IMG/VR virus record: IMGVR_UViG_3300042348_001285
Strand: one strand, 5' to 3'
DNA length: 64,000 nt
DNA from: a virus
Lineage: Duplodnaviria > Heunggongvirae > Uroviricota > Caudoviricetes
Shown: positions 39,500 through 63,973 of the stretch, in pieces
How positions within the stretch are numbered: position 1 is the first letter of the stretch
How the letters are laid out: every line of letters begins with the position of its first letter
Made by a program: the position numbers and the translations under genes
The notes under the pieces: generated by a model
Databases searched by the model: none
Seen by the model: only the letters and a program-made list of their open reading frames with translations
Told to the model about the DNA's origin: nothing

Positions 39500-39795
39500 T
39501 GTGGGGTTGGTGAGTATTTATACCTAGTGCTTGGCTAGGATGAGAGCCACTAGAAGTCGTTGACTCCTATAAGTTGGTGAGTATTTATACCTAGTGCTGA
39601 TTAGGTTAGGGGCCGTCTAGTGTTGTTGACTCCTGGGGCCCGTAAGTATTTATACTTAGTGCTGGTTAGGTTAGGGGCCGTTTTGTGTCGTTGACTCCTG
39701 AGGGGTCCGTAAGTATTTATACTCACTGCCGGCTAAGTCGGAGTCCCCCCGGTGTCGTTGGCTCCACACAAGTCAGTAAGTATTTATACTCACTG
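39500..39795. repeat. tandem array of about 65 bp, five units, each carrying AAGTATTTATAC (TATAAATA on the minus strand)
   Basis: Units begin at about 39512, 39578, 39642, 39708 and 39772. The inter-unit segments are mutually similar, so this is not CRISPR. Confidence 0.85.
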
Positions 39796-39885: not shown

Positions 39886-39927
39886 GGCAATCAACCCTCA
39901 GGCAACTAACCCATCGATCACCAACCC

Positions 39928-39990
39928 ATCGGCAACCATCGGCAACCATCGGCAACCATCGGCAACCATCGGCAACCATCGGCAACCACC
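39928..39990. repeat. microsatellite (ggcaaccatc)x6
   Basis: Direct tandem reading. It sits directly after the structured element, as the microsatellite does at copy 1. Confidence 0.85.
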
Positions 39991-39995
39991 AACAA

Positions 39996-41381
39996 TCACA
40001 AAACCTCAGGTAAAACATAGCCTTTAATCTTCGCAACCCGCTTATTCAAAATAGCCCAATCATCCAAATCCTTAAACCTAAAGTGAGCAGACCCCTTCAG
40101 GAATACCTTAAACTCAAAGAATCCCCAATCTTGCCATACCCCTGGTTCCAATCGGTCTTTGCCACAAACAGGGTCCTTAACGGCATCATAATCTTTGCCA
40201 GTCAAAGTAGATAGGACCTTAATTAGATCCGCCACCTTATGGTAATTAGACTGATAAGATTTAACAGATACAGTGCCCCCACTCCAATCTTTCTCCGCAA
40301 AGTACGGCAAAATAAACTTCTTACCGAATAAATACTGCTCATTGGTTTTCCACCCTTCTACACCATGCCTATTATCGTGATAATGCTTAGTGAAAGCATC
40401 GAAAACTTGCTCTACAGTCCTATCTAATCGCTGATCCTGAGTTGCAATAACGATCTCTAACATCCTGTAGATATTCCGCATTGTAAACGGAACCCTACTT
40501 TGTTGCTCTACAAACCTGTTAATATCTTTAAGCAATTCCGTAGTTGCTAATTTCTCCATTCCCATCTTACTAAATACAAATTCCCACGCTGATCTTTGCA
40601 GGTCTATTTGAAAGTCATTCCTTGCTTTTGCCTGGCCATTTTCCGTACAGACAAATGCGATATTTGATTTGTAAAATCCTTTCAGAACCCTATTTATACC
40701 AACTGCAGACTCAATTTGTTTGTCATAAATCCTGCAGGCTTCCACGTATCGGTTGACAATATCCCTAACGAAATTGTAAGGAATAAGCCCCTCCCCTTCA
40801 GCTTCAATTGCATCGGGACCCATAAAGAACCCATTAAACTCATCATCAGAATCCGGGGCAGGCTTCCTTAGGGTAACTAATCCTATTGCCACATCCGTAG
40901 AACGCTCCGCACCCTTAAAGACCTCACCCAAGTTCTCAACATACCCGTAGTTCCTAATTAGGGACCCCAATTGCCTACGAGCCAAGGAATATTCATTCCG
41001 CACAGTCTCCCAATTACATAAAGACACAATTTGACACCCTGGTGGTGCAATCTCGAAGGCATAGTTAATATGTTTTTCGTCCCCACTGAAAGGGGGATTC
41101 ATTATGATGAAGTCCACATGGCTTATTGCTTCCGGTTTGATATCTAGGAAGTCGGTGCCAATTAGTTTACATTGTTTTGTTGTCAGGATTGCCCTGAGGT
41201 TATCATCAATTTCACACGCCAGAACTTCACTAGCCCCATATTGCAAACAACCTTCTACCAAATTGCCAGAACCTGCGGATGGCTCCAGAATGACTTTATC
41301 AGCCAAATCGAATGGCCCCAGCATTGCGCCTATAACTTGGTCGGGAGTCGGATAATAGTCCTTGTTGTTATAGGATGGCAT
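39996..41381 (-). CDS. DNA methyltransferase domain protein (gamma-class N6-adenine/N4-cytosine type) with an about 300-aa C-terminal extension
   Basis: Motif I 'ILEPSAGSGNL' precedes motif IV 'IIMNPPF'. There is an N-terminal 'YYPTP'. I see no cognate restriction enzyme. Confidence 0.6.
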   Translation of the reverse strand: MPSYNNKDYYPTPDQVIGAMLGPFDLADKVILEPSAGSGNLVEGCLQYGASEVLACEIDDNLRAILTTKQCKLIGTDFLDIKPEAISHVDFIIMNPPFSGDEKHINYAFEIAPPGCQIVSLCNWETVRNEYSLARRQLGSLIRNYGYVENLGEVFKGAERSTDVAIGLVTLRKPAPDSDDEFNGFFMGPDAIEAEGEGLIPYNFVRDIVNRYVEACRIYDKQIESAVGINRVLKGFYKSNIAFVCTENGQAKARNDFQIDLQRSAWEFVFSKMGMEKLATTELLKDINRFVEQQSRVPFTMRNIYRMLEIVIATQDQRLDRTVEQVFDAFTKHYHDNRHGVEGWKTNEQYLFGKKFILPYFAEKDWSGGTVSVKSYQSNYHKVADLIKVLSTLTGKDYDAVKDPVCGKDRLEPGVWQDWGFFEFKVFLKGSAHFRFKDLDDWAILNKRVAKIKGYVLPEVL

Positions 41382-41528: not shown

Positions 41529-42302
41529 TCAAACCCAATCCTCAGCCTCTTTACGAGTCATAAAGAAATGAATACCATTAGTACACTCAATCCGAATATC
41601 GTCATCATAGCTATCTGCAACCACAATCTCGCCTTCCTTGTATTCAAGGGCATTCTGAGTATGGGTAGGGGAGTTGCCGGACCCTTCCAAGACTAGGACA
41701 TAAGATGCTCGGCACTTCCTACCCACCAATGTAGAAGTTCTCTTGGCATCTTCCGGGATCAGGATTTTGATAACCCCTGTATCAACTTTTTTGAACGCAA
41801 TAAATGACCCCTCCTCTGGGACTATTTGAAAGGGGGGAAGAGTTGCACCCTGGAGATTAGCACCCCAGAGATTAGCACCCCGGAGAATTGCACCCTGGAG
41901 ATTAGCACCCCGGAGATTAGCATCCTGGAGATTAGCATCCTGGAGATTAGCACCCCGGAGATCAGCATCCTGGAGATTAGCATCCTGGAGATCAGAATCC
42001 TGGAGATTAGCACCCCGGAGATCAGCACCCCGGAGAATAGCACCCCGGAGATTAGCATCCTGGAGATTAGCATCCTGGAGATTAGCACCCCAGAGATTAG
42101 CATCCTGGAGATTAGCACCCCAGAGATTAGCATCCTGGAGATTAGCACCCCAGAGATTAGCATCCTGGAGATTAGCATCCTGGAGATCAGAAAACGGCCC
42201 AATAACGTACTCAGACCCGTTGATTAGCATTGTTTTGGAAGACATTGTTTTTGGAAAATGGGTATTGGTGGTGGGTTGATTGGGAGCGGTTTGCCGTGGC
42301 AT
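41529..42302 (-). CDS. pentapeptide-repeat protein
   Basis: About 35 consecutive A(N/D)L(Q/R/W)(D/G) pentapeptides. The underlying DNA is a 15/30-bp tandem repeat. The start could instead be at 42245. Confidence 0.85.
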   Translation of the reverse strand: MPRQTAPNQPTTNTHFPKTMSSKTMLINGSEYVIGPFSDLQDANLQDANLWGANLQDANLWGANLQDANLWGANLQDANLQDANLRGAILRGADLRGANLQDSDLQDANLQDADLRGANLQDANLQDANLRGANLQGAILRGANLWGANLQGATLPPFQIVPEEGSFIAFKKVDTGVIKILIPEDAKRTSTLVGRKCRASYVLVLEGSGNSPTHTQNALEYKEGEIVVADSYDDDIRIECTNGIHFFMTRKEAEDWV

Positions 42303-42345: not shown

Positions 42346-42421
42346 AACCCCCATAGCTTCAACCCCTAGGTCAGATAAGTATAAATACCTACCCACCCAA
42401 ACAGTATAAGCACTAAGGCCA

Positions 42422-43693: not shown

Positions 43694-43847
43694 GTTGGTT
43701 GGTTGCTGTTTGGTTGTGGTCCTACCCTAGCATAATGCCGGGGTAGTGTCAACCCCTTGTAGCTTTAACCAAATGGCAAGCATGATGCCGTGGCAGTGTC
43801 AACCCGCCATAATTGCTAACTACTGCGGGTCAAATAAGTATAAATAC

Positions 43848-45290
43848 TTACCCCGAAACCCTGCCATCACTAATCATTATGCCTTCACTTACCAATAACT
43901 CCCGAATCCTATCTGCTTCCTTAAAATCACGATTAGCCCTTGCGATGTTGCGCATTTCAATTAGTGCCTGAATTTCATCACTTTTTGGTTTTTGAGGCTC
44001 GGAAACCTCGTGAACCAGCCCCAAAATCCCAGCTAATTCATGTAAAAGCCCCCAACGATTTAGAATTTCCCTATTTTCATCGCCTGCCGATACAATGGGA
44101 CGAGCCAAATAGAATAATTCGCTGATGGCTACAGACGTATTAAGATCATCATTGATTGCCGAAATGAAGCGGTCTCGGCTATTTTTTAAGTCTGTAGTTA
44201 AAATCAAGGGTTCATTCGTTTGCTGACTAATCCCGTGCCGACTAATTCCATGCTGACTAATTCCATTCCGGCTAGCCCCATGCCAACTATACCCATGCCG
44301 ACTATCACCCCGCCAACCAAACCCCAATGCAGCATTTAATACTTTCCAACCATTGATCGCGGGTATCATTGCCTCTGAATTAAAATCTATCGGCTTCCTG
44401 TAATGGGCTTGTAATACGAATAACCTAATGGTCATGGGACTAATGCCGGATCCAATTAGGTCCCTGATGGTTGTAAAATTCCCTAAGGATTTAGCCATTT
44501 TTTCTTCGCCAACCGTGACAAACCCGTTATGAAGCCAATACCTGGCTAGTTCAGCCCCATTGGCAGCCTCAGATTGGGCTATCTCATTTTCGTGGTGGGG
44601 AAAGATCAGATCGGCTCCACCCAAATGAATGTCAATTGTCTCACCTAGTTCTTCCCTAATCATAGCCGAACATTCAATGTGCCATCCGGGTCGGCCCCAC
44701 CCCCATGGTGACGGAAAGCCGGGTTCACTCGCCATGGCACCCTTCCAGAGGGCAAAATCAAAAGGGTGGCCCTTCTTTGAGTCGCTATTAACCTGTTGTT
44801 GGCCAAGGTTGCGACCACTTAGTTTCCCATACCCCTTAAACCCCATAACCGAGAAGTACATATCACCACCCATAGAATAAGCAAATCCCTTATCGGCAAG
44901 GTCCTGAATCATGGTGCGGATTGCATCAAGACTACGGGTAACCCTTGGCATTTTGTCGGCGGGCAGGATGTTCAATGCACCCATATCCCCCTCAAAGGCC
45001 CTGATATTACGCTCACTGACGGCTTCGATTGTTGTTCCTTCAGAGTTGGCTTTGGCTAGAATTTTATCGTCGATATCCGTATAATTCTGAACAAACGTAA
45101 CCTCATACCCATGCCACATAAAATTACGCCTTAAAACATCCCACACAATATAACTGCGGGCGTGCCCTAAGTGGCATAAATCATAAACGGTAACACCGCA
45201 ACAATACATCGACACTTTGCCTGGAACCAGCGGAGTAAACTTTTCCTTGGCTTTAGTAAGGGTGTTGGTTAGGGTAATGTCGTTAATCAT
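43848..45290 (-). CDS. cysS: cysteinyl-tRNA synthetase with an internal HGIS repeat insertion
   Basis: HIGH region '[15 protein letters not shown]' and KMSKS region 'KMAKSLGNF'. The insertion '..[27 protein letters not shown]..' is encoded by a 15-bp tandem DNA repeat at about 44215-44290. Confidence 0.85.
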
Positions 45291-45423
45291 TGTATTTGCA
45301 GTGGGGGGGGCTGGGGGCTGCGTCAATTACTTATGTGTCCTTGTTAAATGGAGAAATTGCCAACTGAATCGCAAAGTGCTGCAATAAGTGCGGGCACATA
45401 TGAAATATAAATAACCCCCCTTG

Positions 45424-47419: not shown

Positions 47420-47827
47420 TGGGTTGGTTGGTTGGTTGGTCGGGGTTGGTGGGGGGTACTATAGCACGGATGCGCCACAGGTATGCCCGTGTTGTTAACA
47501 CCCCCGAAGTCAATAAGTATAAATACTTACTTAACCCTGGGGCCAATAACACCCTTCCGTACCAATCCTGGAGTCAATACCCCGAAGTCAACTACCACGC
47601 AGCGCCAACCTACCGCCACCACCACCAACCTGAGTATTCAATCCCACTCCATTGGCCGCCTGAGCACCCATTCGAGTTCCACGGAGATCATTTTGATTGT
47701 CGGGGGGACAGGGATGCTCGGGGCACCAAAGCAGCGCCCTCACCCCGTTATTATACCATGCTGGGGAGACCTTGGCAAGATGCTATCGGGAGTCGTTGAC
47801 TGTTACGGGTGAGATAAGTATTTATAC

Positions 47828-48109
47828 TCAGTGACGTTTCTTTGAGTTTCTGCCACTGTACCCACTGACTGGGATTGGGTTACCGTTTAGCTCTCTTTCA
47901 TCTGCTAAATGCCACGCTATGGCCTCTGCTATTGCGGCTAATTTTTTACGTGCTGGTTTAGTGTAGAGGTATAATCCTTCCGTTTCTTTGTTATTTGGGT
48001 CTCCTTCAATTTCGGATGTCAATTGGACAAGTTCCTGCTTAGAGTATTTTTTATAGTATGTGTTTGAAGTTGGCATTATGTTGGGGGAAAAAGAAGGGGC
48101 CATCGCCAT
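47828..48109 (-). CDS. hypothetical protein (82-93 aa)
   Basis: The start is either 48109 or 48076. Confidence 0.45.
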   Translation of the reverse strand: MAMAPSFSPNIMPTSNTYYKKYSKQELVQLTSEIEGDPNNKETEGLYLYTKPARKKLAAIAEAIAWHLADERELNGNPIPVSGYSGRNSKKRH

Positions 48110-48148: not shown

Positions 48149-48766
48149 TCAAGGGAGCATTACAGCTTTGGTAACTGCCATGTTATGTAGAATGTCCTTA
48201 GCAATTTCCCCACAATGTGGGCACAAAGTAGCATGTTTGATCCTAGATTTGAAAATCGAAGTATTGGTATTGCTATCGCCAGAAATCAAATCTCGATTAT
48301 ACCTATAGACCGCAGTTACCAATTTAAGAACTTGACGGTGCTTGACATTATCCTTATACTTAAGGTGAACTCCCGTCATGTTTTGTAGGTTGTTAGTAAT
48401 CCGAACCTTGGGGAAAATAAAGCTGATCTCATCAATCATTTCCTGGGGAACAAAGTCCCGAATAGACTCAATAATAGCAATCTCAAGTTTGACAATTTGT
48501 TTTACTTTGGTCAGCCTATTCCTAAACTGCTCGACCCTGGATTGCTCAATGGGGTCCCACTGATTGGTTAGAGTTTCTGTAATAACTTCCGTGATTGGCT
48601 TAGCTTGTTCCAGCTCTGATTTACGTGCCAGAAGTTGTTTGTAGATGGATTCAATCTGTGTGGCTTGTGTGGTTTCCATTTTGGAGTTAGTGTGGTTGGA
48701 GCGGTTGGTGTGACCTAGTGTCTTGGGTTGAAGTTTGTTAACCTGGGGTTTAAACCCAGAAGTCAA
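48149..48766 (-). CDS. hypothetical protein with a C-terminal Cys pair (CPHC)
   Basis: The start is either 48766, overlapping the upstream stop (ATGA), or 48679. Confidence 0.5.
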   Translation of the reverse strand: MTSGFKPQVNKLQPKTLGHTNRSNHTNSKMETTQATQIESIYKQLLARKSELEQAKPITEVITETLTNQWDPIEQSRVEQFRNRLTKVKQIVKLEIAIIESIRDFVPQEMIDEISFIFPKVRITNNLQNMTGVHLKYKDNVKHRQVLKLVTAVYRYNRDLISGDSNTNTSIFKSRIKHATLCPHCGEIAKDILHNMAVTKAVMLP

Positions 48767-50142
48767 TCAATGAGGTTAAGTTGCCTAAACTGTGAGACGA
48801 CATTCCTAACAGTCTTGCTATCACTTTTAGCCACATCCCTGATAGTTTCCCGAAGAGATGATGGCTTACCAAAATAGTCATCCCCAAGGATAGCCCGCTT
48901 GTTGAGGCGATAAACAGCAAACGATACTTTAGCAATTTCACGAACTTCGTAGAATTCGGGCCCTTTTACTTTCTGGAAGAATGTTTGGGTCCCTTTGAAA
49001 TTTTTAGTCTCTTGGCAGTGATTAACTGTTCGGAAGAAATCCTTAGCAACATCTTCACCGACTGACTTACTGAGGATAGAATTAATAGAAGTTTTCAGGA
49101 AGAAGTTTCTCTTGTCTTTGTTCAAATTGTCCTCAAACTCCCGCTGCATGGAACCTTCAATTTCGGGCCATTCCTCCCTAAAAGTCTCATCAACTACATC
49201 TTGAATGGGGCGCTTTTTAGACGCTTCCATGGAAGCCTGAAGTTGTGGCAGTAGCTTCTCAATTTCTTCAAGAGAAAGGTTGTCGATTGTTTCCAGGATT
49301 GTGATAGCCGGAATTTTTTCAATCGGTTTCGCAACTACTTTCGGAACATAAATGGTTTGTTTGGGCATTGTTGATGGTTGAGGTTGTGGATGGTCTAGGG
49401 CTGGTGTTAGATGGCTATTAGTTGCTCCCTGTAACCTGAGGAACTCGTTATGCACAAAAGTTGGTAACTCCTCGCCAGAATACACTTTGACTTGCGGGAC
49501 TTCGATAGATGGCTCAGAGTCGGAAATTAGTTCGGGGGGTACTTGGGGAATCTGGCCATTAGGGTCGTAATCAGGTACAGTATCCGGATTGTAAACTCTA
49601 ATTATACACTTTTTAGTTGGTCTATCAGTTTGGGGTAATTCATTAATGATATGGACATCCCGGGTGTCCCAGATTCCAAACCCGCGATTAGAGTGAATTT
49701 TCCACCCGTTATCGAAACTAATCAGCTTACGAAAGTCTAAAGGAGATCCATCTACTTCCCAGGAAAAATTAACATTCAAACTCCCAGAAGCCCTGAAAGC
49801 CCTAACTAGAACATTCAAATTATCTGCTTGTTGCTTTAGTTTTTCTTCTTCGGAGAAATCACAGTCACGTTCATCGGGGCCGTCCACTCTTGTAACTAAG
49901 TGAACTTCTACTTTATTGGTAACCTCTCGATTTACCATCCTCAGGAAATCTGTCAGATTGCTAACTTGGAGGCGAGTGCGAATGTAGGGGTCACGAATAA
50001 TAATGCAACTACACCCTTCCAGGTATTCAGCAAAAATCCTTTTGTAACTCCATCCGGTAGAACCCTCAGGGATGTCAATAGTTTTAATGTGGTCGAGGAA
50101 ACTAGGGATGTCAATAGTTTTAATGTGGTCGAGGAAACTCAT
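48763..50142 (-). CDS. hypothetical protein (459 aa) with a duplicated N-terminal dodecapeptide
   Basis: 'SFLDHIKTIDIP' occurs twice, from a 36-bp tandem duplication at 50083-50140. Confidence 0.55.
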   Translation of the reverse strand: MSFLDHIKTIDIPSFLDHIKTIDIPEGSTGWSYKRIFAEYLEGCSCIIIRDPYIRTRLQVSNLTDFLRMVNREVTNKVEVHLVTRVDGPDERDCDFSEEEKLKQQADNLNVLVRAFRASGSLNVNFSWEVDGSPLDFRKLISFDNGWKIHSNRGFGIWDTRDVHIINELPQTDRPTKKCIIRVYNPDTVPDYDPNGQIPQVPPELISDSEPSIEVPQVKVYSGEELPTFVHNEFLRLQGATNSHLTPALDHPQPQPSTMPKQTIYVPKVVAKPIEKIPAITILETIDNLSLEEIEKLLPQLQASMEASKKRPIQDVVDETFREEWPEIEGSMQREFEDNLNKDKRNFFLKTSINSILSKSVGEDVAKDFFRTVNHCQETKNFKGTQTFFQKVKGPEFYEVREIAKVSFAVYRLNKRAILGDDYFGKPSSLRETIRDVAKSDSKTVRNVVSQFRQLNLID

Positions 50143-50292: not shown

Positions 50293-51462
50293 TTAAACAG
50301 GCATTACCAAATATGTGTAACATGCCCCATCATTGGAATTAACCGGGGTCAAAACTGCTGGTGTTGTCGGGGCGTTCATTTGAATTTTAACTTTATCTGC
50401 ACCCATAACCTTAGTCTTCAGGACTTCAATTAGGTAACGCACATTAAATGCGATTGTGATTTCCGGACTATTACCAATGACCGTCAAACTCTCATTAAAT
50501 GACATCATTCCTTCGGCTTGAGCACTAATTGTGGCCCCAACCTCAGTAAACTCAAACTTGACTACATTATTATGGGCATTAGCCACAATGGCAGCTTGCT
50601 CAAGTGTAGTCAGCAGAGAAAGACGATCAAAGACAGCAACCGACTTGAAATTATCAGGAATCAACTGCCGATAGTTAGGGTATTGCCCATCTGCCAATCG
50701 GAATTGAACCTTATAGGTGCCGTACACCATGGTAACATCTTGCTTGGATACAGTGAAGGAAACCGGACTAAACTTAGGCTTAGCTCCAATAATCCTGGCA
50801 ATCTCTGCTAGGATCTTAGCGGGCATCGTAAAGTTAAATTCTGTTTCCTCAGTATCAACAATGTCATCCAAAGTCAAAACTGATAACCTGATCCCGTCCG
50901 TAGCAGCAAAAGTCAAAGAATTGCCAGCAAGTTGTAGGTTGACCCCGGTAAGGAGCATCTTGGCCTGGTCCGAACTTGCCGAAAACAGGGTACTTCCCAA
51001 ACCAGAAACAAACTCAGCAGATTGCACACCGAACGTTATTGAATCGGTAGTAATACTGGCTGTGACTGGCACACTCGGAAAATCATCTGCTGAGATCGTA
51101 TTGATCTTAACTGCTGCCCCCTTGTCCGAAGAAACCAACAACTTACCTTCAGAATCACCGGGGTCAAAACTAAGGATGACCGCCGAAGTCTTAGGCATCC
51201 CGTTTACGATATCCTTAAGGGTGGACACCGAAGCAGTAATTGAACCTGGAGACTGCACCGATGCAGCAATATCGACTGATACTTGTTTGATGAAACCGGA
51301 ATTATTTCCCAGATCATACACCGTGGCCACCAACTTACCTGTATCAGGAACAGCGGTAAGCAACACATTGAGGAGAACAGGATGCTTAGCCCGCTTATCA
51401 TAGTTCCGTGCTAGAACTTTCAAGGCTTGGCTGAAATCAGATTGGGCAACTACGGCTTTCAT
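50293..51462 (-). CDS. dnaN: DNA polymerase III beta sliding clamp (bacterial DnaN type, three-domain)
   Basis: 389 aa. 'TDGIRLSV' matches the beta-clamp TDGHRL motif. The C-terminus '..YLVMPV' is typical of DnaN. Confidence 0.8.
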   Translation of the reverse strand: MKAVVAQSDFSQALKVLARNYDKRAKHPVLLNVLLTAVPDTGKLVATVYDLGNNSGFIKQVSVDIAASVQSPGSITASVSTLKDIVNGMPKTSAVILSFDPGDSEGKLLVSSDKGAAVKINTISADDFPSVPVTASITTDSITFGVQSAEFVSGLGSTLFSASSDQAKMLLTGVNLQLAGNSLTFAATDGIRLSVLTLDDIVDTEETEFNFTMPAKILAEIARIIGAKPKFSPVSFTVSKQDVTMVYGTYKVQFRLADGQYPNYRQLIPDNFKSVAVFDRLSLLTTLEQAAIVANAHNNVVKFEFTEVGATISAQAEGMMSFNESLTVIGNSPEITIAFNVRYLIEVLKTKVMGADKVKIQMNAPTTPAVLTPVNSNDGACYTYLVMPV

Positions 51463-53440: not shown

Positions 53441-54253
53441 TCACTTAAAGGTATTATCGGAAAGTGAAAGAACGTTAGCGCCGTTAATTAGGATCTTCTG
53501 AATGCTACCATTCTTCATCGCTTCACGAAGAACTTCAAGGCGTTGATACTCAAGAGATTGTGCCGTCACAGTAGATGCTAGTGCCCTGTTTTCCTCTGCT
53601 TTGAGTTGTGCAGTCTGCGTCTTAACTTGCTGTTCTTTATTCGCAGATTGTGCTGCAACCACACGGTTGATAGATTCAACAAGAGTATCAGGAAGGTCTG
53701 CCTTACCTACGATGATGGAATCAATGGTGATCTTACCTTCAAGACCATTTTTCTTCAAGGCATCAGAAAGATTGGCTTTAATTGAGTCTTGAACTTGACC
53801 AAGGCTGCTGTTTACAACCAAAGCCGGGAATTCGTCTACAGATTGGTTTACAGCAGAAGTAATCAGGCGAGCAATGTAACTACTCATAAGTTGAACTTGG
53901 TTACCATCACTAATCGCATGATTAGTCATATCATAACCAGTATAAAACTCATAAAGAGAAGTAGGGTTGATACTGTAGGTTACAGTCACATCCATCTCTT
54001 TCATAATGGTGTTGTCTTTAGTTTTGGGGCGAAGGTCATTTGCCGTTACCGTAATCTTACGTGTATTGAAGACTTTGATGCTACCAAAGCCATCATATTT
54101 AATTCCAGGTGTAAGAACTTCATTCTTCACCTGGCCATCAAAACCTACGAATAGGCCATTTTCACCAGTGCTAATTGTGGTGAATTGTCCTGCCGTAAGT
54201 GCAAGAACAATGACACCAGCGCCAAGACCGATACCGACTTTTGCGAGAGACAT
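53441..54253 (-). CDS. SPFH/band-7 (prohibitin/HflKC-like) membrane protein
   Basis: An N-terminal TM segment 'VGIGLGAGVIVLALTAG' is followed by an about 200-aa SPFH-like region and a C-terminal coiled coil (QQVKTQTAQLKAEENRA). Confidence 0.5.
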   Translation of the reverse strand: MSLAKVGIGLGAGVIVLALTAGQFTTISTGENGLFVGFDGQVKNEVLTPGIKYDGFGSIKVFNTRKITVTANDLRPKTKDNTIMKEMDVTVTYSINPTSLYEFYTGYDMTNHAISDGNQVQLMSSYIARLITSAVNQSVDEFPALVVNSSLGQVQDSIKANLSDALKKNGLEGKITIDSIIVGKADLPDTLVESINRVVAAQSANKEQQVKTQTAQLKAEENRALASTVTAQSLEYQRLEVLREAMKNGSIQKILINGANVLSLSDNTFK

Positions 54254-54292
54254 GATTAAGGGGGGGGTAGTTAAGGGGGGGGTAAAGAACAA

Positions 54293-55419: not shown

Positions 55420-56094
55420 TTAACCCAGCAGCAAGCACGATGCCGAAGCATCGTCAACCCATAGGGTTTCCAGATCATAGACAGAATTTGGCTTGCCTTC
55501 TTCCAAGGTAACTCCAAGGTTCCCCGTATAGTAGTTACTGGTTACCCTAGCCACTGTGCCTATGGGCTTTACTGTCTTTTTCTTTTGCCTCCTGTAAACA
55601 GTTTGCCCCTTCAAATATGAATATCCATTAGGATCACATCTGACAGGGCTATCACTAACTTTGGTGTACCCTTCGATATTGACCCCCTTAGTCTCACCAT
55701 CGGCACAATTTGTTTGTTTATTGCCTTTCCTGTTTCTATAGGGTCGGTCACCATTACCCTTCCTAAAGTTACATCCCGCGCACATTGGTTGGAGATTATT
55801 AAGGCTGTCACCACCCCCTTTAGACTTGGGAACAATATGATCAACAGTCAATGGATAAAGATCTTCAGTATAAACATCCCAATGTCTCCCACCACGGCCT
55901 TTACCCAATACTAACCTAGACCCAACTTTGCCGCAAGTTACGCAAGTACACCCTTTGTTTGCAAAAACTCTTAGGCGCGGATGGGAACTAAATGATGGCA
56001 AACTTAATTTCTCAATTGGGGTCTCCCTGAGGACAATATAGTTAAAAATCTGGGTCTTTGCGGTCAGGTTAACCCTTGTGGCTACGGCACCCAT
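55420..56094 (-). CDS. HNH endonuclease
   Basis: 'CTCVTCGK...HWDV...LTVDHIVPKSKGGGDSLNNLQPMCAGCN' carries the Cys and His/Asn residues of the HNH motif. Confidence 0.8.
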   Translation of the reverse strand: MGAVATRVNLTAKTQIFNYIVLRETPIEKLSLPSFSSHPRLRVFANKGCTCVTCGKVGSRLVLGKGRGGRHWDVYTEDLYPLTVDHIVPKSKGGGDSLNNLQPMCAGCNFRKGNGDRPYRNRKGNKQTNCADGETKGVNIEGYTKVSDSPVRCDPNGYSYLKGQTVYRRQKKKTVKPIGTVARVTSNYYTGNLGVTLEEGKPNSVYDLETLWVDDASASCLLLG

Positions 56095-56225
56095 CACTTC
56101 ACCCCCAACTTAACCAGCAGGCAAGTACGGCGAGCCCTAGCGGCCTTAGCCGCCTGTGGCTTACGTTTGCCCTTGGATTTACGACCCTTCTCACGGGGTC
56201 CCAGTTTGCTGTGGTTGCTGGTCAT
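56094..56225 (-). CDS. small basic ORF (43 aa) translationally coupled to the HNH gene (TGATG overlap)
   Basis: A TATAAT promoter at about 56245 is followed by 'MTSNHSKLGPREKGRKSKGKRKPQAAKAARARRTCLLVKLGVK'. Confidence 0.35.
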   Translation of the reverse strand: MTSNHSKLGPREKGRKSKGKRKPQAAKAARARRTCLLVKLGVK

Positions 56226-56963: not shown

Positions 56964-57713
56964 TTACATTTTCATTGTAGCATCTAGACGCAAGCCCCCA
57001 GAGAAGATAACCTTAGCCATTGTGTCAGGTAGCGTCCCCAGTAGATGCAGAGAGTCTAAAGTGGAAAACATAAACATTTTGTTAAGCTCCTCCCTTACCC
57101 TTTCTCTGGAGACGCAAGCTAGCATTTCTACTGCCAAGTCACTGCGCAATACGGCATAAGTTTCATCATCGGGGATGAATCCTTTGGTAATTTGGAACCT
57201 GAACCCTCTGAGTACCCTAAGGCCGTCCTCTCTGATTCTGTCAGCAGGGTTCCCAACGAAACGGAGAATTTTGTTCCTAATGTCGAGAACTCCCCCGAAA
57301 GGGTCAATCAGGGATCCATCAATGGCCTTGGCAATTGCCCCACTGGAAAAGTCCCTTCTGGCTAAATCATCATGCAAAGTACCCGGCTTCACCCAATCAG
57401 GGTGACGGCCATCGCTGTAGGGACCATCTTTGCGGGCTAGTACAAAATCTGCGACGGTGGTGCGGGCTTCTAGCGCATGGCCCTTTGGGACCCGCGCACG
57501 GATGGTTAGAAACTCACGGCGAGATTCGAAGATTTGAAAACCTTGTTCAGAGAGTTGAGCTTCCATTGCTAAGAAAGCGCTATCGGCCGTGGCGAAGACA
57601 CCCTTGGGAGCAACAACAGAGAAGTCAATGTCCTTGGATGGAATCCCAAGTAAACTATCCCTGACACAACCCCCTACCTCAAAAAATTGAAATTTTTCCA
57701 CTTGCTTTGCCAT
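56964..57713 (-). CDS. class-II nucleotidyltransferase (CCA-adding enzyme / poly(A) polymerase head-domain family), short form
   Basis: 'FEVGGCVRDSLLGIPSKDIDFSV' matches the GGxVRDxLLGxxxxDxD signature. The protein is only 249 aa, so head and neck domains without the tRNA-binding body. Confidence 0.7.
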   Translation of the reverse strand: MAKQVEKFQFFEVGGCVRDSLLGIPSKDIDFSVVAPKGVFATADSAFLAMEAQLSEQGFQIFESRREFLTIRARVPKGHALEARTTVADFVLARKDGPYSDGRHPDWVKPGTLHDDLARRDFSSGAIAKAIDGSLIDPFGGVLDIRNKILRFVGNPADRIREDGLRVLRGFRFQITKGFIPDDETYAVLRSDLAVEMLACVSRERVREELNKMFMFSTLDSLHLLGTLPDTMAKVIFSGGLRLDATMKM

Positions 57714-58129
57714 TTATGCCTCGGTTTTTGATTACTGGTATTTTAGCATAGGGGGTGGCAAGCTGTCAAGGGGTGGTGCTTATGGGGTAGCCGAGGGTGG
57801 CTGAGGGTGGCCGATGCGGTTGTTTACGCCTACCATGATACATTAAGTTTTGTTACTGTCTTTATTCTGTGGCAAAGTGACGCTTACAAACCTTGAGCAA
57901 CACTAATTCCCCCAAGTATCTATCACTGTGTTCCAAAAATGCACTCATTGCTTCCCCCCTCAGAATTATAACCACCATAGGAATTTAAACGTTTACCAAA
58001 CATAGCCCTATCATCAGGATCTACAAGGCGCCCTTCATCTGTCAATTCTCTCCAAATGTAGGAAGTTGTTATTCTGGTGGCTTTTCTAGATTGATACATT
58101 ATTGGGGGAGGTTAATATACCGAGTACAA

Positions 58130-58924
58130 TCAAATCTTAGGCAATTCAACTACTTTGCCGACAGGTTCTGGGGGTACCATGGCATCAGCCCCACCATCAG
58201 CCCCACCATCGGCCCCACCATCAGCCCCACCATCAGCCCCACCAATCAACTTACTGCCGTCAACCATGGCCGCCATAGCACCTACACCATAACTATGAGC
58301 AGTTTGGATAAAATGGGCTTCAACTTCTGCCTTAGCTTCTTCGACCATGTCTTCAGTTGCCTCCCTAAAGGATTCCACTGCAAAGTTTAGGTCCCCCGGT
58401 AGCTTATTGGCTTCAGATTTTAAATTGCTTACAATTTCCCTTAGTTTAACCTTGCTGATAGACTTATCATTAAGTACCCCCTCTAGTTGGTCTGCAATGT
58501 CATTGATCCCTTGCATAGCCTGTTCAAGTTTAACCCCAAACTCCTCATTGAAACTATCTTTCCGGTTCTTCTCTGGTGGTTTAATCCCAGGAACAGCAAC
58601 CAGTGGCCCCTCAGAAAGGCGATTCAAAGTAATTGGGGTAGCTTGACTTCTACCTGCTCCGCTGACAAATTTCCCCCATTGAGCTTCACTCATTGAGAAC
58701 TCAACAACTTGTCCCCTAGGGAATACCCAATCCCTATGCAAATTCCTTTCCATCTCTGCTGTTTGAATGGTTACCGATATGTAGTGATTATGGCTTAAAT
58801 CAGACCCGAACAAATAAACCCCAGGTGTACATTGCGGGCGAGTAACTGTGATCACCCCATAAGCAGGATGGCTGTAAACTTGGTTGTTGTCTTTGGTGGT
58901 GATGGTAGGTGCTTGATTGCTCAT
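58130..58924 (-). CDS. hypothetical protein (264 aa) with a (GGAD)x5 repeat
   Basis: A 12-bp tandem DNA repeat 'caccatcagccc' lies at 58188-58247. Confidence 0.5.
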   Translation of the reverse strand: MSNQAPTITTKDNNQVYSHPAYGVITVTRPQCTPGVYLFGSDLSHNHYISVTIQTAEMERNLHRDWVFPRGQVVEFSMSEAQWGKFVSGAGRSQATPITLNRLSEGPLVAVPGIKPPEKNRKDSFNEEFGVKLEQAMQGINDIADQLEGVLNDKSISKVKLREIVSNLKSEANKLPGDLNFAVESFREATEDMVEEAKAEVEAHFIQTAHSYGVGAMAAMVDGSKLIGGADGGADGGADGGADGGADAMVPPEPVGKVVELPKI

Positions 58925-59024
58925 TGATTTTGGTGGGGTTGTCTTTGGTGGGGATGTGTGTCGCTGCTGTCGTTGCTGTCGGGTTATATGGAAAGGGCTT
59001 ACATTCACTGCATACTATCGGCGA

Positions 59025-59456
59025 TTAGCGACTAGCAGTAACTTTAGAGCGACTGAGGATCGTAGCAACATAAATGCGCCCCTTTTTAGCCATGGCAGAT
59101 ACTGCTTTGTTACGATTAAATACCGGAACTTTCTTAACGGTGGGCTCCATTTTAGCCTTGGCAGCATCTTCTAGGGCCTTCAGTTTGGCTTTGGCAACTT
59201 CCACCGTTTGGGTAGCCTTTTGGATCTTAGTATTGCCAGAAAAATCATATTCCTTATCCTCCCGCAGAATGAAATTACCAAAAATTGTCTCAATTTTCTT
59301 AAGATCGGCAGCCGTCAGTTTCCCAGCAATGGAAGCTTTAACAGCATTCCTGCGCTCAGTCAGGGCAGCAATACGCTCTTCCAGCGAAGACAAGCGACGG
59401 ACAAGGTTCTCGGTGGTTTGGGCTTGGGTTTGGATTGTAGTTTGGGCGATGGCCAT
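59025..59456 (-). CDS. hypothetical coiled-coil protein (143 aa)
   Basis: Ala/Lys-rich heptad-like sequence. Confidence 0.45.
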   Translation of the reverse strand: MAIAQTTIQTQAQTTENLVRRLSSLEERIAALTERRNAVKASIAGKLTAADLKKIETIFGNFILREDKEYDFSGNTKIQKATQTVEVAKAKLKALEDAAKAKMEPTVKKVPVFNRNKAVSAMAKKGRIYVATILSRSKVTASR

Positions 59457-59578
59457 GGCTTCGGTGTGTGTCAACTGAACCCAGTATAAGGGGTGCCTTG
59501 CCCCCTTGTCAACCCCCCCTAACCAAAACGCAACCATCACCCGTCGTCTTAGTACGGGAGAAGAAGCGACAATGGCTA

Positions 59579-59986
59579 CTAAACCAACTTAGCTTGAATT
59601 TTATCTAACTTTTCCAACAGGGCACCCATGGACTTGGCTTCCTCCACTGCAAGGTCTAATTGCCCCCTGGTCACATAAGTAGCAATCCGCTCACTTTGCC
59701 TTGTGCGAAATACAGAACAAAAAGACTCAGCACATTGTGCTAAGATGCCCCATTCTTCATTACTTAGTTCAATTGAGCGCTTGATTGGGCTATTTGCATC
59801 ATTGTCAAAATCCCTATAGCCCTCAGACTCTATTGCACATGGTTCTAAAAGCAGGCGATGGAGCCTAGGGAGCCGGCGGGGCGGTGCATCAAGGGCGGCA
59901 TTAAATGCGTCCCAATTCGCCGTATCCAAAATAATAGGCTGTTGGTCTCCCTGGTCTCCGCCGGGAAGCCCACTTGGTGTGGTCAT
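59579..59986 (-). CDS. hypothetical protein (135 aa)
   Basis: Intact ORF. Confidence 0.45.
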   Translation of the reverse strand: MTTPSGLPGGDQGDQQPIILDTANWDAFNAALDAPPRRLPRLHRLLLEPCAIESEGYRDFDNDANSPIKRSIELSNEEWGILAQCAESFCSVFRTRQSERIATYVTRGQLDLAVEEAKSMGALLEKLDKIQAKLV

Positions 59987-60279
59987 TTGTTGTTATGCAA
60001 TTTATGTAGTTTATTCAGAAAGAGGAAACCAGCATATTTATGGAAAACCTCAACAGGTCTCCAATCATTGAAGTATTCAGATGACAGAAACCATTTGCCA
60101 CTTTCCGATTTATATACTCTGCCACACTCTGACATTGTATTTGAGCTACGGTAAATGACTAGGGACGGTTTATTTACTGAGATGTAGAGAGGGGATTGGT
60201 ATTTTGTTTGTGGTTTGTCCATGGTGGAGGCGGAAAGGAGGGGGTAGGGTGGATGAGAGTTAAACGAATGTGGTGACAA
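59983..60279 (-). CDS. hypothetical protein (98 aa)
   Basis: Intact ORF. The start overlaps the upstream stop (ATGA). Confidence 0.45.
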   Translation of the reverse strand: MSPHSFNSHPPYPLLSASTMDKPQTKYQSPLYISVNKPSLVIYRSSNTMSECGRVYKSESGKWFLSSEYFNDWRPVEVFHKYAGFLFLNKLHKLHNNK

Positions 60280-60298
60280 TCAACAAATGTAGAGACAA

Positions 60299-61021
60299 TC
60301 AACTAAAGATATCTACTGTTTCTTTTTTCTTAATCTGCCAGTAAGTGTCTCGGGTAGCATTATACGCGGTCAAAATACCTGAAAACACAGCACCAGTATC
60401 AATGCCGATACGGTCCTTGGTTATATCCGGATCTTTACCTACGATAGTATGGCCATGGACAACTTTCTTTATTTTGTCGGTCCATTTATGTAGTTCGGGC
60501 CCCGTGCTCAAAAATGGTTCACGCACCCATAGTAGGTTGTCGGCCTTTTTAGTTTTAATTTGTTCAAAGGGGTCATGCCCAGGAAACACTCCAGCATGAA
60601 TAAACATTGTGTCCCCCACAGTCATGTAGATAGGTAGTTGTTTGATCCATTCATAGTGATTGGCTTTCATGTCTTCAAACTGTTTAAGATTTCCGCCATT
60701 TCTCACCCAAATCGCCAAAGAATTGTATCCCCACATGGTTTCGGATCCTGCAACAACATCGACAAACATACGCTCATGATTGCCCATCAGCACATTGAAA
60801 CTTTCTAGTCCTGCACTTTCGGGGTCATCCATAAGCTCCTTGACTTTGTTAAGGACCTTCATATCTTCCCCGCCACGATCTATCAAGTCCCCCAGCAGAA
60901 TCACTCGCGCCCCAGTTCCATTAAGCCACTTTAATGCGGCAGTTAAAACATCATAACGAGCGTGGATGTCACCAATGGCTACTACATCACCGGCATTTAC
61001 TTTTTTCCTTAGTTTAGTCAT
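60299..61021 (-). CDS. calcineurin-like metallophosphoesterase (lambda-phosphatase/ApaH-type Ser/Thr phosphatase)
   Basis: 'GDIHARYD', 'GDLIDRG' and 'GNHE' motifs. Confidence 0.8.
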   Translation of the reverse strand: MTKLRKKVNAGDVVAIGDIHARYDVLTAALKWLNGTGARVILLGDLIDRGGEDMKVLNKVKELMDDPESAGLESFNVLMGNHERMFVDVVAGSETMWGYNSLAIWVRNGGNLKQFEDMKANHYEWIKQLPIYMTVGDTMFIHAGVFPGHDPFEQIKTKKADNLLWVREPFLSTGPELHKWTDKIKKVVHGHTIVGKDPDITKDRIGIDTGAVFSGILTAYNATRDTYWQIKKKETVDIFS

Positions 61022-61132
61022 TTTACTTCGGGGGTTTTACTTTGGGGGTTAATACTTCGGTATTTACCCTGTGGATATCCTATGGGTAATCCTACAGAGC
61101 CACCCTGCGGGGCCACCCTGCGGGTTCATAAC

Positions 61133-61618
61133 CTAGCAACCAACATATTCTACCATAGAGAAACCTTCCGTGTCAACCCCCCTTAAGGACGCTTGCAAGG
61201 CAGAGTGCATCTTTTCAATAACCAACTCAGGTACATTGCGAACCCTGGCTGAGTTTTGCTTAAGGCAAATGTCTAAGGGTGGGTTCACTACGATGGCCCT
61301 AATGTCAGGGTACCCATAACTCTGGAGCAAAGCAATTGCGTCCTTGCGGTATTTTGCCCTATAATGGGTGCCATCCATAATGAGTACCTTGCCAACATTT
61401 TCCTCAATTAAGTTCTCAATACGGTTCTGAATAACCATCCATTCGCCTTGAATGTTGGCGTCCCCATATAATTCTGCTCGGATTTGGTCCCCGGAAATTA
61501 TTACCGCATTTTCACGCTTAGCAATCCCAGCAGCATAGGTGGATTTACCGGAGCCAGGGGGCCCTACCATGATGTAGGCATAGTTGTGGTTGTGGGTGAG
61601 GGTGTTTATGGGGGCCAT
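61133..61618 (-). CDS. polynucleotide 5'-kinase (T4 Pnk kinase-domain-like P-loop kinase)
   Basis: 'IMVGPPGSGKSTYA', then 'ISGDQIRAEL' (like DxxR), 'LIMDGTH' and 'NSARVRNVPELVIEKM'. These are co-linear with T4 Pnk 'GCPGSGKSTWA / NRDDYR / ISDTNL / NSKRGTKAVPIDV'. Confidence 0.6.
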   Translation of the reverse strand: MAPINTLTHNHNYAYIMVGPPGSGKSTYAAGIAKRENAVIISGDQIRAELYGDANIQGEWMVIQNRIENLIEENVGKVLIMDGTHYRAKYRKDAIALLQSYGYPDIRAIVVNPPLDICLKQNSARVRNVPELVIEKMHSALQASLRGVDTEGFSMVEYVGC

Positions 61619-61727
61619 AATGGGATCCAAGGGGTATAGGTAGGTGCAGGGACCTAAGGACCGGGTGTCAAACCGCATCAATTACACTTAGTATAGCATA
61701 CCGCTAACCAAAGTCAATGCCCTAAGG

Positions 61728-61970
61728 TCAACGCCCCAAAATCAAAAACCTATATCTATCCAACCAATCCTTAAGCAAATCATCATCTTCGACTACTTGG
61801 GAGTTTTGATTTACAAAATCTTCAACTATCCACGCAACCTCTTTAAATTGCAATTCATTGCAGTCGGGTTTGAATGATACTTTGAGATTAGGATATTTCG
61901 GCAGTATCGCAATTAGTTGCGACTTTAGGCTTGATGGTGTGCTCATTTTGCAACTGACGGGATTCAACAA
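61728..61970 (-). CDS. hypothetical protein (80 aa)
   Basis: Intact ORF. Confidence 0.45.
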   Translation of the reverse strand: MLNPVSCKMSTPSSLKSQLIAILPKYPNLKVSFKPDCNELQFKEVAWIVEDFVNQNSQVVEDDDLLKDWLDRYRFLILGR

Positions 61971-61985
61971 ACTTACCCATTGCCA

Positions 61986-62216
61986 TCAAAGGTCAGTCTC
62001 TAAGGCAATTTCCCCCAAGTTAAACTTTTCCATAATATCCAAATAACCAGCATTCAAGATACCTTGAATAAGGTCACCGTCATCTAGTTCCTTCAGATTT
62101 GCAGTCAAGGCTTCGCAATAAACACGAATAAGCTCTTTAACTGGTGCATTTTCTGCAACACGGGACACTAAAATGTCGATCAGTTCGTTGCGATTTTCAA
62201 TAGATTCAGGAGCCAT
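61986..62216 (-). CDS. hypothetical protein (76 aa)
   Basis: Intact ORF. Confidence 0.45.
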   Translation of the reverse strand: MAPESIENRNELIDILVSRVAENAPVKELIRVYCEALTANLKELDDGDLIQGILNAGYLDIMEKFNLGEIALETDL

Positions 62217-62327
62217 TTTTTGTTGGGTTTGCTTGGTCTGTTTGGTTTGCTTGGTCTGTTTGGTCTATCAATGTAATTTTACAATTACCTTAATATAACC
62301 GTGATGTAACCCCCATGGATTACAATA

Positions 62328-62412
62328 AGGAAGAGGGGAGATTCGAACTCCCGGAGGTTTAACCCCCTGCAGTTTTCAAGACTGCTGCTATCAACCACTC
62401 AGCCACTCTTCC
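62328..62412 (-). tRNA. trnS(UGA): tRNA-Ser (anticodon UGA), class II with long variable arm; 3' CCA not encoded
   Basis: Minus strand folds as follows. Acceptor GGAAGAG/CTCTTCC. D-stem GCTG/TAGC with loop AGTGGTTGA. Anticodon stem GCAGT/ACTGC with loop CUUGAAA, anticodon UGA. Variable arm of 16 nt. T-stem GGGAG/CUCCC with loop UUCGAAU. It is followed by UUAU, not CCA. Confidence 0.9.
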
Positions 62413-62422
62413 AATAGCTCAC

Positions 62423-62629
62423 CTAAGGGGCTTTAATGTTGCTCTTTGCAAGGTCTAACCTAATCCAATTTTTCAAGGTTTGAACACTGCGAATTTTTGC
62501 CTGAAGGTGTGATAATCCTTCTTCGGAAAAAGACTCAGGACATAACTCTCGTTCGGCAATTAGTTCCCCCGCATACATTTCAAGGGCTTCGATTGCGAGT
62601 TCTTTATCTTGTTTGGAAATTAGTGACAT
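62423..62629 (-). CDS. hypothetical protein (68 aa)
   Basis: Intact ORF. Confidence 0.45.
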   Translation of the reverse strand: MSLISKQDKELAIEALEMYAGELIAERELCPESFSEEGLSHLQAKIRSVQTLKNWIRLDLAKSNIKAP

Positions 62630-62632
62630 GGC

Positions 62633-63973
62633 CTATGAGTTGAAACCTTTGGGTGCGTTGAATCTGCGGTTTTCATGAATTTTTTCTATTTTACCCGAGA
62701 TAGCCCATTCAGACCCTTCTTTCGAAGATGAATTTTCTAGATTGCAAAATGATAAGGGCTGTACATAATAATCTTGCTTTAGGGCATTCACCAGTTCGTG
62801 GAACTTTTTATCTGCTTCTGTGTCAGGTCCTAGTTTAGGCACTCGGATCCGTAAAGTTCCGAAAAATCTCCCCTTGCCAACTTCGTAGGTTTCCCTAATC
62901 TTCCCCCAAGCCAGTTCGTTTACTATGTCATCTACAGATAGGTCCAATTCACCTTCAACCATTTCCTTTGTGGCCTCTCTTTTTACTTCGGGGTCATTAG
63001 AGAAGCGGCTGAAAATGAAGTTATTAGAGATGCGGTAGAATCGGCTGATAGCGCCTGACACAGATTGTTTATATTCTGTAAGTTTCCGTTGAGCTTTCCT
63101 TAGGGTGTTACCCTTGGTGGGGTCATAACTCAAGAGCTTACAAAAGTATAAATCTTCAAAACTTTTCCCTTCACCCAAGGTTTGGATTTCGTTAGTGGCG
63201 CAGGCGTAAACACTTTTATATCCCCCCATACAGTCATTGGTAGCAATCCAACCGAAGAACGCACGAGAGTAATCCCCTACAATAATAGTGTCATAAAGAT
63301 CATGCTCACCATCTGGGACTGCTAGGTAAAGGGGCCTTTGTTGATTGTTTGTATGAACTATTTTAAATCCAGGATTCGTTTTTAAAGTCTCTTCTTCTGT
63401 CTGTCTTTTCACTCTGGCAATATCTACAGGTTTCGAGGAAACACCAGGTATGTAATACAAGTCTGGAGCTATAATGTCCAAAGACTCTGCCAAAGTTTTT
63501 AACTTTGCCTTTCGATCTTCGAATTCTCTCCAGCACTTTACTTTACTAACCCAATTTTTTTCAAGTGAAGTTTCGTCATCTCTGGATAGAGCACTTAAAA
63601 AGTACCAAAATTCCAAAACTTTATCCCAATTCTTCCCAAGAACTCTTTCAGGCTCGTTAAGTACGATGGCAGGGTTTAGGCTTGAAAGGTCGTTGAACCT
63701 TTTTAAGAGAACAGCGTGAATAAAACTGATCCCAAGGGTTTTAGCGGTGGTGGCGCTTAAACTTGGATTGTTACCTCGGAGTCCATTAGCCGCCCCCATC
63801 CAGAAAGCCTGAAAGTCCATCACCCCCATGCCCTTAGAGAGCATAATCGCTTCACTCTGGGCACAAGGGCTGAGACCTTTTTCTTCTCTCACCAGTTCGT
63901 AACCCTTACCGGGCATACCCCCAGGCTGAGACCATTTTTTAGTTAGTTTGTTTATTAGTCCGGTGTTTGCCAT
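62633..63973 (-). CDS. large hypothetical protein (446 aa); speculative nucleotidyltransferase/RNA-ligase-like
   Basis: No firm motif. 'GFKIVHTNN' weakly recalls Rnl2 motif I KIHGTN but lacks the Gly. The position next to the PNK/phosphatase/tRNA genes is suggestive only. Confidence 0.5.
   Translation of the reverse strand: MANTGLINKLTKKWSQPGGMPGKGYELVREEKGLSPCAQSEAIMLSKGMGVMDFQAFWMGAANGLRGNNPSLSATTAKTLGISFIHAVLLKRFNDLSSLNPAIVLNEPERVLGKNWDKVLEFWYFLSALSRDDETSLEKNWVSKVKCWREFEDRKAKLKTLAESLDIIAPDLYYIPGVSSKPVDIARVKRQTEEETLKTNPGFKIVHTNNQQRPLYLAVPDGEHDLYDTIIVGDYSRAFFGWIATNDCMGGYKSVYACATNEIQTLGEGKSFEDLYFCKLLSYDPTKGNTLRKAQRKLTEYKQSVSGAISRFYRISNNFIFSRFSNDPEVKREATKEMVEGELDLSVDDIVNELAWGKIRETYEVGKGRFFGTLRIRVPKLGPDTEADKKFHELVNALKQDYYVQPLSFCNLENSSSKEGSEWAISGKIEKIHENRRFNAPKGFNS

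Follow-up and report, generated by a model that had tools for sequence, protein, structure and literature searches.

A probably phage-encoded cysteinyl-tRNA synthetase with a copy-number-variable repeat in the linker before its helical bundle

Introduction

Why should a phage genome carry a gene for cysteinyl-tRNA synthetase (CysRS), and what becomes of the enzyme when a tandem repeat grows between two of its domains? We address these questions for the cysS gene at positions 43848-45290 (minus strand) of IMG/VR virus record IMGVR_UViG_3300042348_001285. The whole stretch of 64,000 nucleotides (nt) that was analyzed is referred to here as the window. We consider it probable that the gene encodes a functional phage CysRS, captured from a picocyanobacterium and streamlined by three deletions, in which a repeat expansion in one linker is tolerated.

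Results

The window gene encodes a CysRS with catalytic and anticodon-contact residues in place

The gene and its parts are as follows, with domains named after the five-domain layout of E. coli CysRS, namely Rossmann, CP, stem-contact, helical-bundle and anticodon-binding (PMC4519929).

43848-45290, minus strand: cysS, 480 amino acids (aa) plus stop, with TAA at 43848-43850 and the ATG start at 45290
44364..45239, minus strand: catalytic part (Rossmann fold, CP domain, stem-contact fold), aa 18-309; Pfam PF01406 tRNA-synt_1e, E = 5.7e-122
44169..44324, minus strand: linker from the last stem-contact-fold helix to the first helical-bundle helix, aa 323-374 (52 aa); from the AlphaFold model and the alignment to E. 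coli
44226..44315, minus strand: tandem array of six 15-bp units, aa 326-355; from Tandem Repeats Finder (TRF) and the in-frame reading
44013..44171, minus strand: helical bundle (DALR_2), aa 374-426; Pfam PF09190, E = 1.1e-09
43851..43982, minus strand: truncated C-terminal anticodon-binding domain, aa 437-480; from a sub-threshold CysS_C match and the mapping of E. coli residues

The mechanically called open reading frame (ORF) runs back to a TTG at 45326, and the start that reads MIND is the one common to relatives. Against the NCBIfam model TIGR00435 (cysS), the protein scores 479.4 bits over profile positions 2-457 of 466, which exceeds the curated equivalog cut-off of 340. The closest solved sequences are bacterial CysRS (8qhp, 3tqo and 1li5/1u0b), and among solved structures 1u0b_B, the E. 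coli CysRS-tRNA complex, matches best (E = 2.6e-34). The Pfam CysS_C match falls below its threshold: it covers profile positions 5-43 of 51 and scores 19.9 bits, where 23 are required. We also considered MshC (Cys:GlcN-Ins ligase), a CysRS paralogue with the same catalytic core, and rejected it. The TIGR03447 score is 254.7 bits (aa 10-311) versus a cut-off of 485.1, and the DALR_2 and C-terminal anticodon-binding helices that MshC lacks are present in the window protein. A defence-system reading of the gene was likewise rejected. Rfam identified no regulatory RNA near cysS, and we found no convincing sigma-70 promoter or terminator adjoining it.

A preliminary description of this DNA had called the gene a complete class I CysRS with intact HIGH and KMSKS motifs. 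The gene type is correct and the first signature motif is present as HLGH (aa 40-43, nt 45162-45173), the form also found in cyanobacterial homologues. The second motif is not KMSKS. It reads KMAKS (aa 264-268, nt 44487-44501), a Ser-to-Ala variant that recurs in several other CysRS on viral contigs. The zinc ligands of the E. coli enzyme (C28, C209, H234 and E238) correspond to C31, C207, H232 and E236, and W205 of the cysteine pocket corresponds to W203; these residues are invariant in our alignment A2. Work based on the 1U0B structure places the anticodon contacts of E. coli CysRS at R427, W432, D436 and R439 (PMC13449415). All four positions are retained, as R451, F456, D460 and R463, and the Phe in place of W432 is also the cyanobacterial state. 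Overall, the window protein is 39% identical to E. coli CysRS (1LI5/1U0B) and shares its five-domain layout, zinc ligands, cysteine-pocket Trp and the equivalents of R427, D436 and R439. In contrast, E. coli CysRS has about 30 aa less in the linker that follows residue 324, and it keeps a terminal TTWRR strand and an AGARV segment.

The linker contains a coding tandem repeat that varies in copy number

TRF reports a repeat of period 15 at 44221-44304 with 5.6 copies, 76% matches and a score of 84. The unshuffled gene scores 84-91, and none of 500 codon shuffles exceeded 52. In the reading frame of cysS, the array comprises six 15-bp units at 44226-44315, each encoding (W/R/Q)-H-G-x-S and together giving 30 aa, followed by the degenerate start of a seventh unit (CAGCAA). 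The preliminary description had reported an insertion of about 27 aa generated by a 15-bp repeat at 44215-44290. Its origin in a repeat is borne out, but the insertion is 30 aa long and the array is shifted by 10-25 nt, lying further upstream in the gene. We asked whether the unit is a dispersed element and rejected this, as it occurs only within the array and nowhere else in the window. An assignment of the repeat to the pentapeptide-repeat family (PF00805) was also discarded, because a Pfam scan of the CysRS gives no Pentapeptide match.

The array occupies a junction between domains. In an AlphaFold2 model of the window CysRS (mean pLDDT 70.7), helices are predicted at aa 305-322, 324-328 and 366-380, the last of which begins the DALR domain, and aa 329-359 form a coil whose pLDDT stays under 50. 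The array breaks up none of the predicted secondary-structure elements. In the pairwise alignment, the whole array appears as a gap after E. coli residue 324, at the junction of stem-contact fold and helical bundle. The insertion had been placed earlier between the catalytic core and the anticodon-binding region, and this location holds, with the stem-contact fold before it and the helical bundle after it. The 30-aa insert contains four Arg, four His and two Trp residues versus a single acidic residue.

A check of repeat-number variation had been proposed, and its outcome is positive. We read the copy number from the DNA of ten alleles; L numbers are our labels for the related loci.

6 units: window allele
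5 units: L004, L089, L172
4 units: L170, L171, L173
about 2 units: L084
0 units: L086, L080

Alleles with four, five or six units occur inside one 90%-identity protein cluster, and their flanks stay aligned. About two units are found at 84% identity and none at 81% and at 68% identity; relatives that differ in their arrays are otherwise 81-94% identical. The arrays are permutations of a few shared unit variants, such as TGGCATGGGGCTAGC, CGGAATGGAATTAGT and CGGCACGGGATTAGT, and L172 differs from L170 by a single QHGIS unit. Such permuted, shared variants are the pattern expected of slippage or unequal exchange. Because every length change is a multiple of 15 bp, the array cannot act as a frame-shifting switch. 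These results establish the array as a genuine coding variable-number tandem repeat.

We then compared linker lengths, measured from an invariant A-L (aa 321-322) to F375. In 44 cellular picocyanobacterial CysRS the linker spans 16-53 aa with a median of 34, and the 52-aa linker of the window therefore lies within the normal range of the family. Repeat-free phage alleles have linkers of 22-24 aa. The cellular linkers are of low complexity and some are themselves repetitive, with SAADHSAADH, ATATATATA and poly-Gly as examples. Thus the array sits in a linker that is already hypervariable in the donors, and not at a special insertion point. About 10 of the 44 cellular linkers begin with G-x-RHGA(A/S)LGW at the same position as the array, and the linker of the two-unit phage allele reads GFGIGRHGASWQGVSRQTNE, which includes GRHGASWQGVS. 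Because RHGA-type sequence occupies this place in both, the (R/W/Q)HGxS unit most likely grew from the native donor-enzyme motif RHGA(A/S)LGW and was not inserted from elsewhere.

Tandem repeats are unusually abundant in the window as a whole: TRF lists 28 rows scoring 60 or more in the 64 kb, and the genome seems generally prone to repeat expansion. Examples include a 64-bp unit present 3.7 times at 97% identity and a perfect 10-bp unit present 6.3 times; tandem repeats lie, for instance, at 21815-22049, 39926-39988, 9548-9620 and 58183-58244. Another 15-bp array is found in a separate ORF near cysS:

41529-42302, minus strand: pentapeptide-repeat protein (PF00805 plus DUF5758), from Pfam

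The array in this gene (41845-42187) has 22.9 copies of its 15-bp unit with 85% DNA identity, which marks it as recently expanded. The encoded protein has 257 aa in the window versus 208 aa in L086.

cysS is under purifying selection and probably resides on a phage genome related to a 279-kb contig

The Nei-Gojobori ratio of nonsynonymous to synonymous substitution (dN/dS) is about 0.1 over the whole gene in six phage alleles. For the catalytic part it is 0.06-0.09 among phage relatives, and for the DALR_2 helical bundle 0.07-0.36 among phage alleles. Taking the helical-bundle and anticodon-binding parts, values are about 0.1-0.3 except for the near-identical pair L084/L086, which is uninformative. 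The reading frame is intact in more than ten alleles. The gene is therefore under purifying selection and is not a pseudogene, and the truncated C-terminus described below is a maintained state. The preliminary description had named two signs that would point to a pseudogene, loss of the anticodon-binding residues and disruption of a conserved structural element. Neither is seen: the four contact residues are kept in a gene with dN/dS of about 0.1, and the array interrupts no conserved element.

The surroundings of cysS point to a phage. On the minus strand lie 103 of the 121 non-overlapping ORFs in the window, most of them small. The region from about 34 to 56 kb is collinear with 21 kb of a 279,339-bp IMG/VR contig (IMGVR_UViG_3300044846_005229) at 88-95% nt identity. 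The exact 480-aa protein is present on four contigs, the longest of 166,790 bp, and cluster mates of the CysRS reside on contigs of 279,339 and 284,095 bp. Window proteins match PHROG families, including phrog_32703 (E = 7e-139), a processivity factor, thymidylate kinase, tRNA nucleotidyltransferase, polynucleotide kinase and phosphatase. The dnaN (50293-51462) and tmk (3077-3820) genes noted earlier were both confirmed by Pfam. The order dnaN, MIT_C protein gene, cysS, pentapeptide-repeat protein gene and DUF4942 methyltransferase gene recurs on more distant contigs. Among phages, DnaN is most similar to proteins of cyanophages, with 26-31% identity to those of Synechococcus phage S-H1 and Nodularia phages. 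The host is probably a cyanobacterium.

The best cellular matches of the CysRS are from Cyanobium, Synechococcus and Vulcanococcus at 57-60% identity. Other cyanobacteria, Synechocystis, Nostoc, Leptolyngbya and Prochlorococcus included, show only 43-49% identity among the matches listed. Five protein clusters are much closer to the window CysRS, with 93, 84, 81, 68 and 68% identity. Scans of metagenome and genome contigs added no other close relative among the matches listed. The picocyanobacterial enzymes align over 96-98% of the length with the same domain order, and share the HLGH motif, the Phe at the E. coli W432 position and a long low-complexity linker at the same site. They differ from the phage clade in having KMSKS where the clade has KMAKS, and in retaining three segments that the clade has lost. 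Their linkers are also irregular, whereas that of the window is a regular 15-bp tandem array. A CysRS with 58% identity, the picocyanobacterial level, also turned up in L174 (CALRKZ020000018.1), a contig labelled as a Mesorhizobium metagenome-assembled genome and probably mis-binned.

Could the gene instead be a decaying pseudogene, an assembly artefact, or part of cellular or plasmid DNA? The 64-kb window has no capsid, portal or terminase gene, and for that reason we regard its assignment to a phage as strong, yet incomplete. A megablast search with the 20 kb around cysS gave no match to a cultured phage, and the CysRS itself is host-like. Against these points stand the intact frame in more than ten alleles with dN/dS of about 0.1, the identical protein on four contigs, and an array that at 90 bp is short. 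Synteny with the 279-kb viral contig, the PHROG matches and the one-stranded layout of small genes all speak for phage DNA, and no cellular-genome locus carries a repeat-bearing allele among the matches listed. We rejected the pseudogene on the basis of the dN/dS values and the intact frames, and we regard this whole group of explanations as very improbable.

Three deletions are common to the phage clade

Relative to the cellular enzymes, all phage-clade alleles share three derived deletions. The first removes 8 aa of the CP domain, which read DNASGRVA in cellular homologues and contain a G-x-R-V conserved from E. coli to cyanobacteria. The second removes about 15 aa of the helical bundle. The third removes the C-terminal GGxTxWLR, which is the final GTxW strand of the anticodon-binding domain, such that E. 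coli W458 has no counterpart in the window CysRS. This strand is kept in all 44 cellular homologues and in independently acquired CysRS (35-40% identity) on viral contigs longer than 200 kb, and its loss is therefore specific to the phage clade of the window. All three deletions were overlooked in the preliminary description, and we think that the C-terminal truncation merits more attention than the repeat.

These losses raise the possibility that the protein is no longer a standard CysRS. A repurposed enzyme might recognize tRNA less strictly or differently, use a phage tRNA as its substrate, or serve as a ligase or in some moonlighting role. The clade-specific loss of a strand that 44 of 44 cellular homologues retain is in keeping with this idea, as are the deletion of the G-x-R-V segment, the CysS_C score under the Pfam cut-off and the low confidence of the AlphaFold model over the CP region (aa 148-184). 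However, the protein scores well over the equivalog cut-off of TIGR00435 and keeps the zinc site, W203, HLGH, KMAKS and all four anticodon-contact residues. Its C-terminal domains remain under purifying selection, and MshC-type paralogues lack the whole anticodon-binding part, unlike the window CysRS. Repurposing thus appears doubtful to us. The enzyme most likely still charges tRNA-Cys (anticodon GCA) during infection, alongside the products of other tRNA-related phage genes; normal charging is assumed in this proposal, because the clade lacks the GTxW strand and the CP segment.

The repeat is likely a near-neutral expansion

We propose the following history. The ancestor of a phage group with genomes of about 280 kb would have captured cysS from a Cyanobium/Synechococcus-type picocyanobacterium, and the three clade-wide deletions would have streamlined the gene. 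Replication slippage or unequal recombination may then have multiplied the native linker motif RHGAS..W within the surface loop between the stem-contact fold and the helical bundle, 15 bp at a time and always in frame. As this loop is unstructured and its length already differs widely among cellular enzymes, the number of units could change without much consequence for the enzyme. That the repeat itself is a tolerated, near-neutral expansion seems likely to us, since array-free sister alleles are under the same purifying selection. The preliminary description had left open neutral expansion or altered tRNA recognition, and the former is the better supported of the two.

Several observations weigh against this history. 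In addition to the missing virion genes, no tRNA-Cys gene is present in the window or in 13 related loci. The clade has lost a conserved C-terminal strand and a CP segment holding the widely conserved G-x-R-V. The expanded loop joins domains for which coupling between anticodon recognition and catalysis has been reported (PMC9976931; bioRxiv 10.1101/2025.02.14.638259), and changes in linker length might not be silent. Across 18 units, His is found in 14, Gly in 17 and Ser in 16, and positions 1 and 4 vary. These three residues are close to invariant, yet the Gly codon takes any of the four bases in its third position (GGT, GGG, GGA and GGC), with almost no change in the first two. Finally, at least four units are present in all eight genomes sampled from the protein cluster of more than 90% identity. 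The conservation of the unit and the retention of at least four copies hint at constraint on the peptide. This signal is weak: the units arose by copying from one another and recur across genomes, and it therefore reflects few independent events.

The main rival to near-neutral expansion builds on these last observations. According to this model, a His/Arg/Trp-rich hinge loop spaced by Gly and Ser would modulate how tRNA is bound or how the domains communicate, or would attract a partner or metal ion, with copy number as the adjustable setting. The conserved x-H-G-x-S pattern with only synonymous changes in the Gly codon, the four to six units retained in eight of eight genomes and the residue composition of the insert are all compatible with such a role. 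A precedent is offered by the insertion peptide of Halobacterium CysRS, which the citing paper reports to matter for aminoacylation (Evilia & Hou 2006, via PMC3940603). On the other hand, sister alleles with no units or about two experience the same purifying selection, disorder is predicted for the loop, and its length lies within the cellular range, with cellular linkers sharing only the seed motif with the array. Unit variants common to several genomes also leave few independent events behind the conservation. We therefore consider an adaptive tuning role unlikely.

A combined scenario, in which the clade first remodelled its CysRS through loss of the strand and shortening of the CP domain and bundle, and the window lineage then evolved a selectable His-Gly-x-Ser hinge repeat, strikes us as improbable. 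If it were true, copy number in the remodelled CysRS would adjust how tRNA-Cys is recognized, or the repeat would bind a metal or partner, for example to sustain translation when the host restricts tRNA charging.

The window gene compared with other phage and cellular synthetases

The preliminary description had considered a CysRS unusual for a phage. Genes of this type are indeed rare: a CysRS match was found in 21 of the 50,697 records of the phage collection, several of them short unannotated contigs. They are not new in kind, as cysS is already annotated in Acinetobacter phage MD-2021a and Sinorhizobium phage Phosso. Huge phages are known to carry up to 15 aminoacyl-tRNA synthetase (aaRS) genes per genome, related to yet distinct from host genes (Al-Shayeb et al. 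2020, PMC7162821). The window gene resembles these in being a host-related aaRS gene in what is probably a phage genome of more than 200 kb, beside tRNA genes, a tRNA nucleotidyltransferase gene and other tRNA-related genes. The CysRS of these phages are only 35-40% identical to the window CysRS, which points to independent acquisitions. They differ in keeping the C-terminal GTxW strand, and the repeat is in none of those examined.

An insertion into CysRS has a partial parallel in Halobacterium NRC-1, whose enzyme has a 19-residue insertion peptide near the active site that is attributed to salt adaptation (Evilia & Hou 2006, cited in PMC3940603). By this cited description, the two cases are alike in being lineage-specific insertions that leave the enzyme active, and the Halobacterium insertion differs in having no tandem repeat and no known copy-number variation. 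No published case of an aaRS linker with a repeat of variable copy number came to our notice, although the literature was not searched for one specifically.

Current understanding is not overturned by these results. They add a well-characterized case of aaRS capture by a huge phage, one that probably infects cyanobacteria, and indicate that a captured aaRS gene can be trimmed yet remain under purifying selection. Alleles with 0, 2, 4, 5 and 6 units constitute a natural experiment on the hinge length that a class I synthetase tolerates. The clade-wide loss of the C-terminal strand likewise tests the true requirements of anticodon recognition.

Other genes and features of the window

A tRNA-related cluster lies at 56964-63973:

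56964-57713, minus strand: tRNA nucleotidyltransferase, PolyA_pol head domain, phrog_24229
60299-61021, minus strand: NinI-like phosphoesterase
61133-61681, minus strand: polynucleotide-kinase-like AAA_33 protein
62328-62412, minus strand: tRNA-Ser(TGA)

This cluster looks like a tRNA repair and maturation module. It includes a 446-aa ORF at 62633-63973 (minus strand) that has no match in Pfam, PHROGs, PADLOC or the phage collection, and this orphan could be the ligase of the module. ARAGORN also predicts a tRNA-Met(CAT) at 13953-14025 (minus strand). With the Rfam tRNA model, the interval 13800-14200 yields no match even at E ≤ 1, and this tRNA is doubtful or highly divergent.

Next to dnaN, in a position conserved in relatives, is the following gene:

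48763-50142, minus strand: 459-aa MIT_C (phospholipase-D-like) protein

PADLOC additionally aligns its product with the C-terminal part of BrxL (E = 1.4e-22). Further annotated genes at 39996-41381, 53441-54292, 55420-56097 and 59579-59986, all on the minus strand, are a DUF4942 DNA methyltransferase, an SPFH/Band 7 protein, an HNH endonuclease and a weak match to a TacA-like antitoxin. The methyltransferase is 45.9% identical to the product of a Leeuwenhoekiella phage gene.

In the cysS clade at 68% identity, L080 (1-21332) has a T4-like neighbourhood with clustered translation-related genes. The neighbours of cysS there encode an intein-containing ribonucleotide reductase, a SegE GIY-YIG endonuclease, an EF-Ts domain protein, a Val_tRNA-synt_C domain protein and a Thg1-like protein.

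The 12-mer AGTATTTATACT, which is a small hairpin (AGTAT-TT-ATACT), occurs in 13 copies with at most one mismatch versus 0.17 expected. Sites include 43837-43848, 39513-39790, 42378-42389, 47516-47527 and 47817-47828. The sampled copies are intergenic; one overlaps the cysS stop codon, and five fall within 65-67-bp tandem repeats at 39580-39795. The 12-mer could serve the phage as a promoter, a terminator or a regulatory motif. Finally, the segment 6001-20000 has a G+C content of 0.51-0.57 and positive GC skew, versus 0.41-0.48 in most of the remaining window, and may be a mosaic or separately acquired region.

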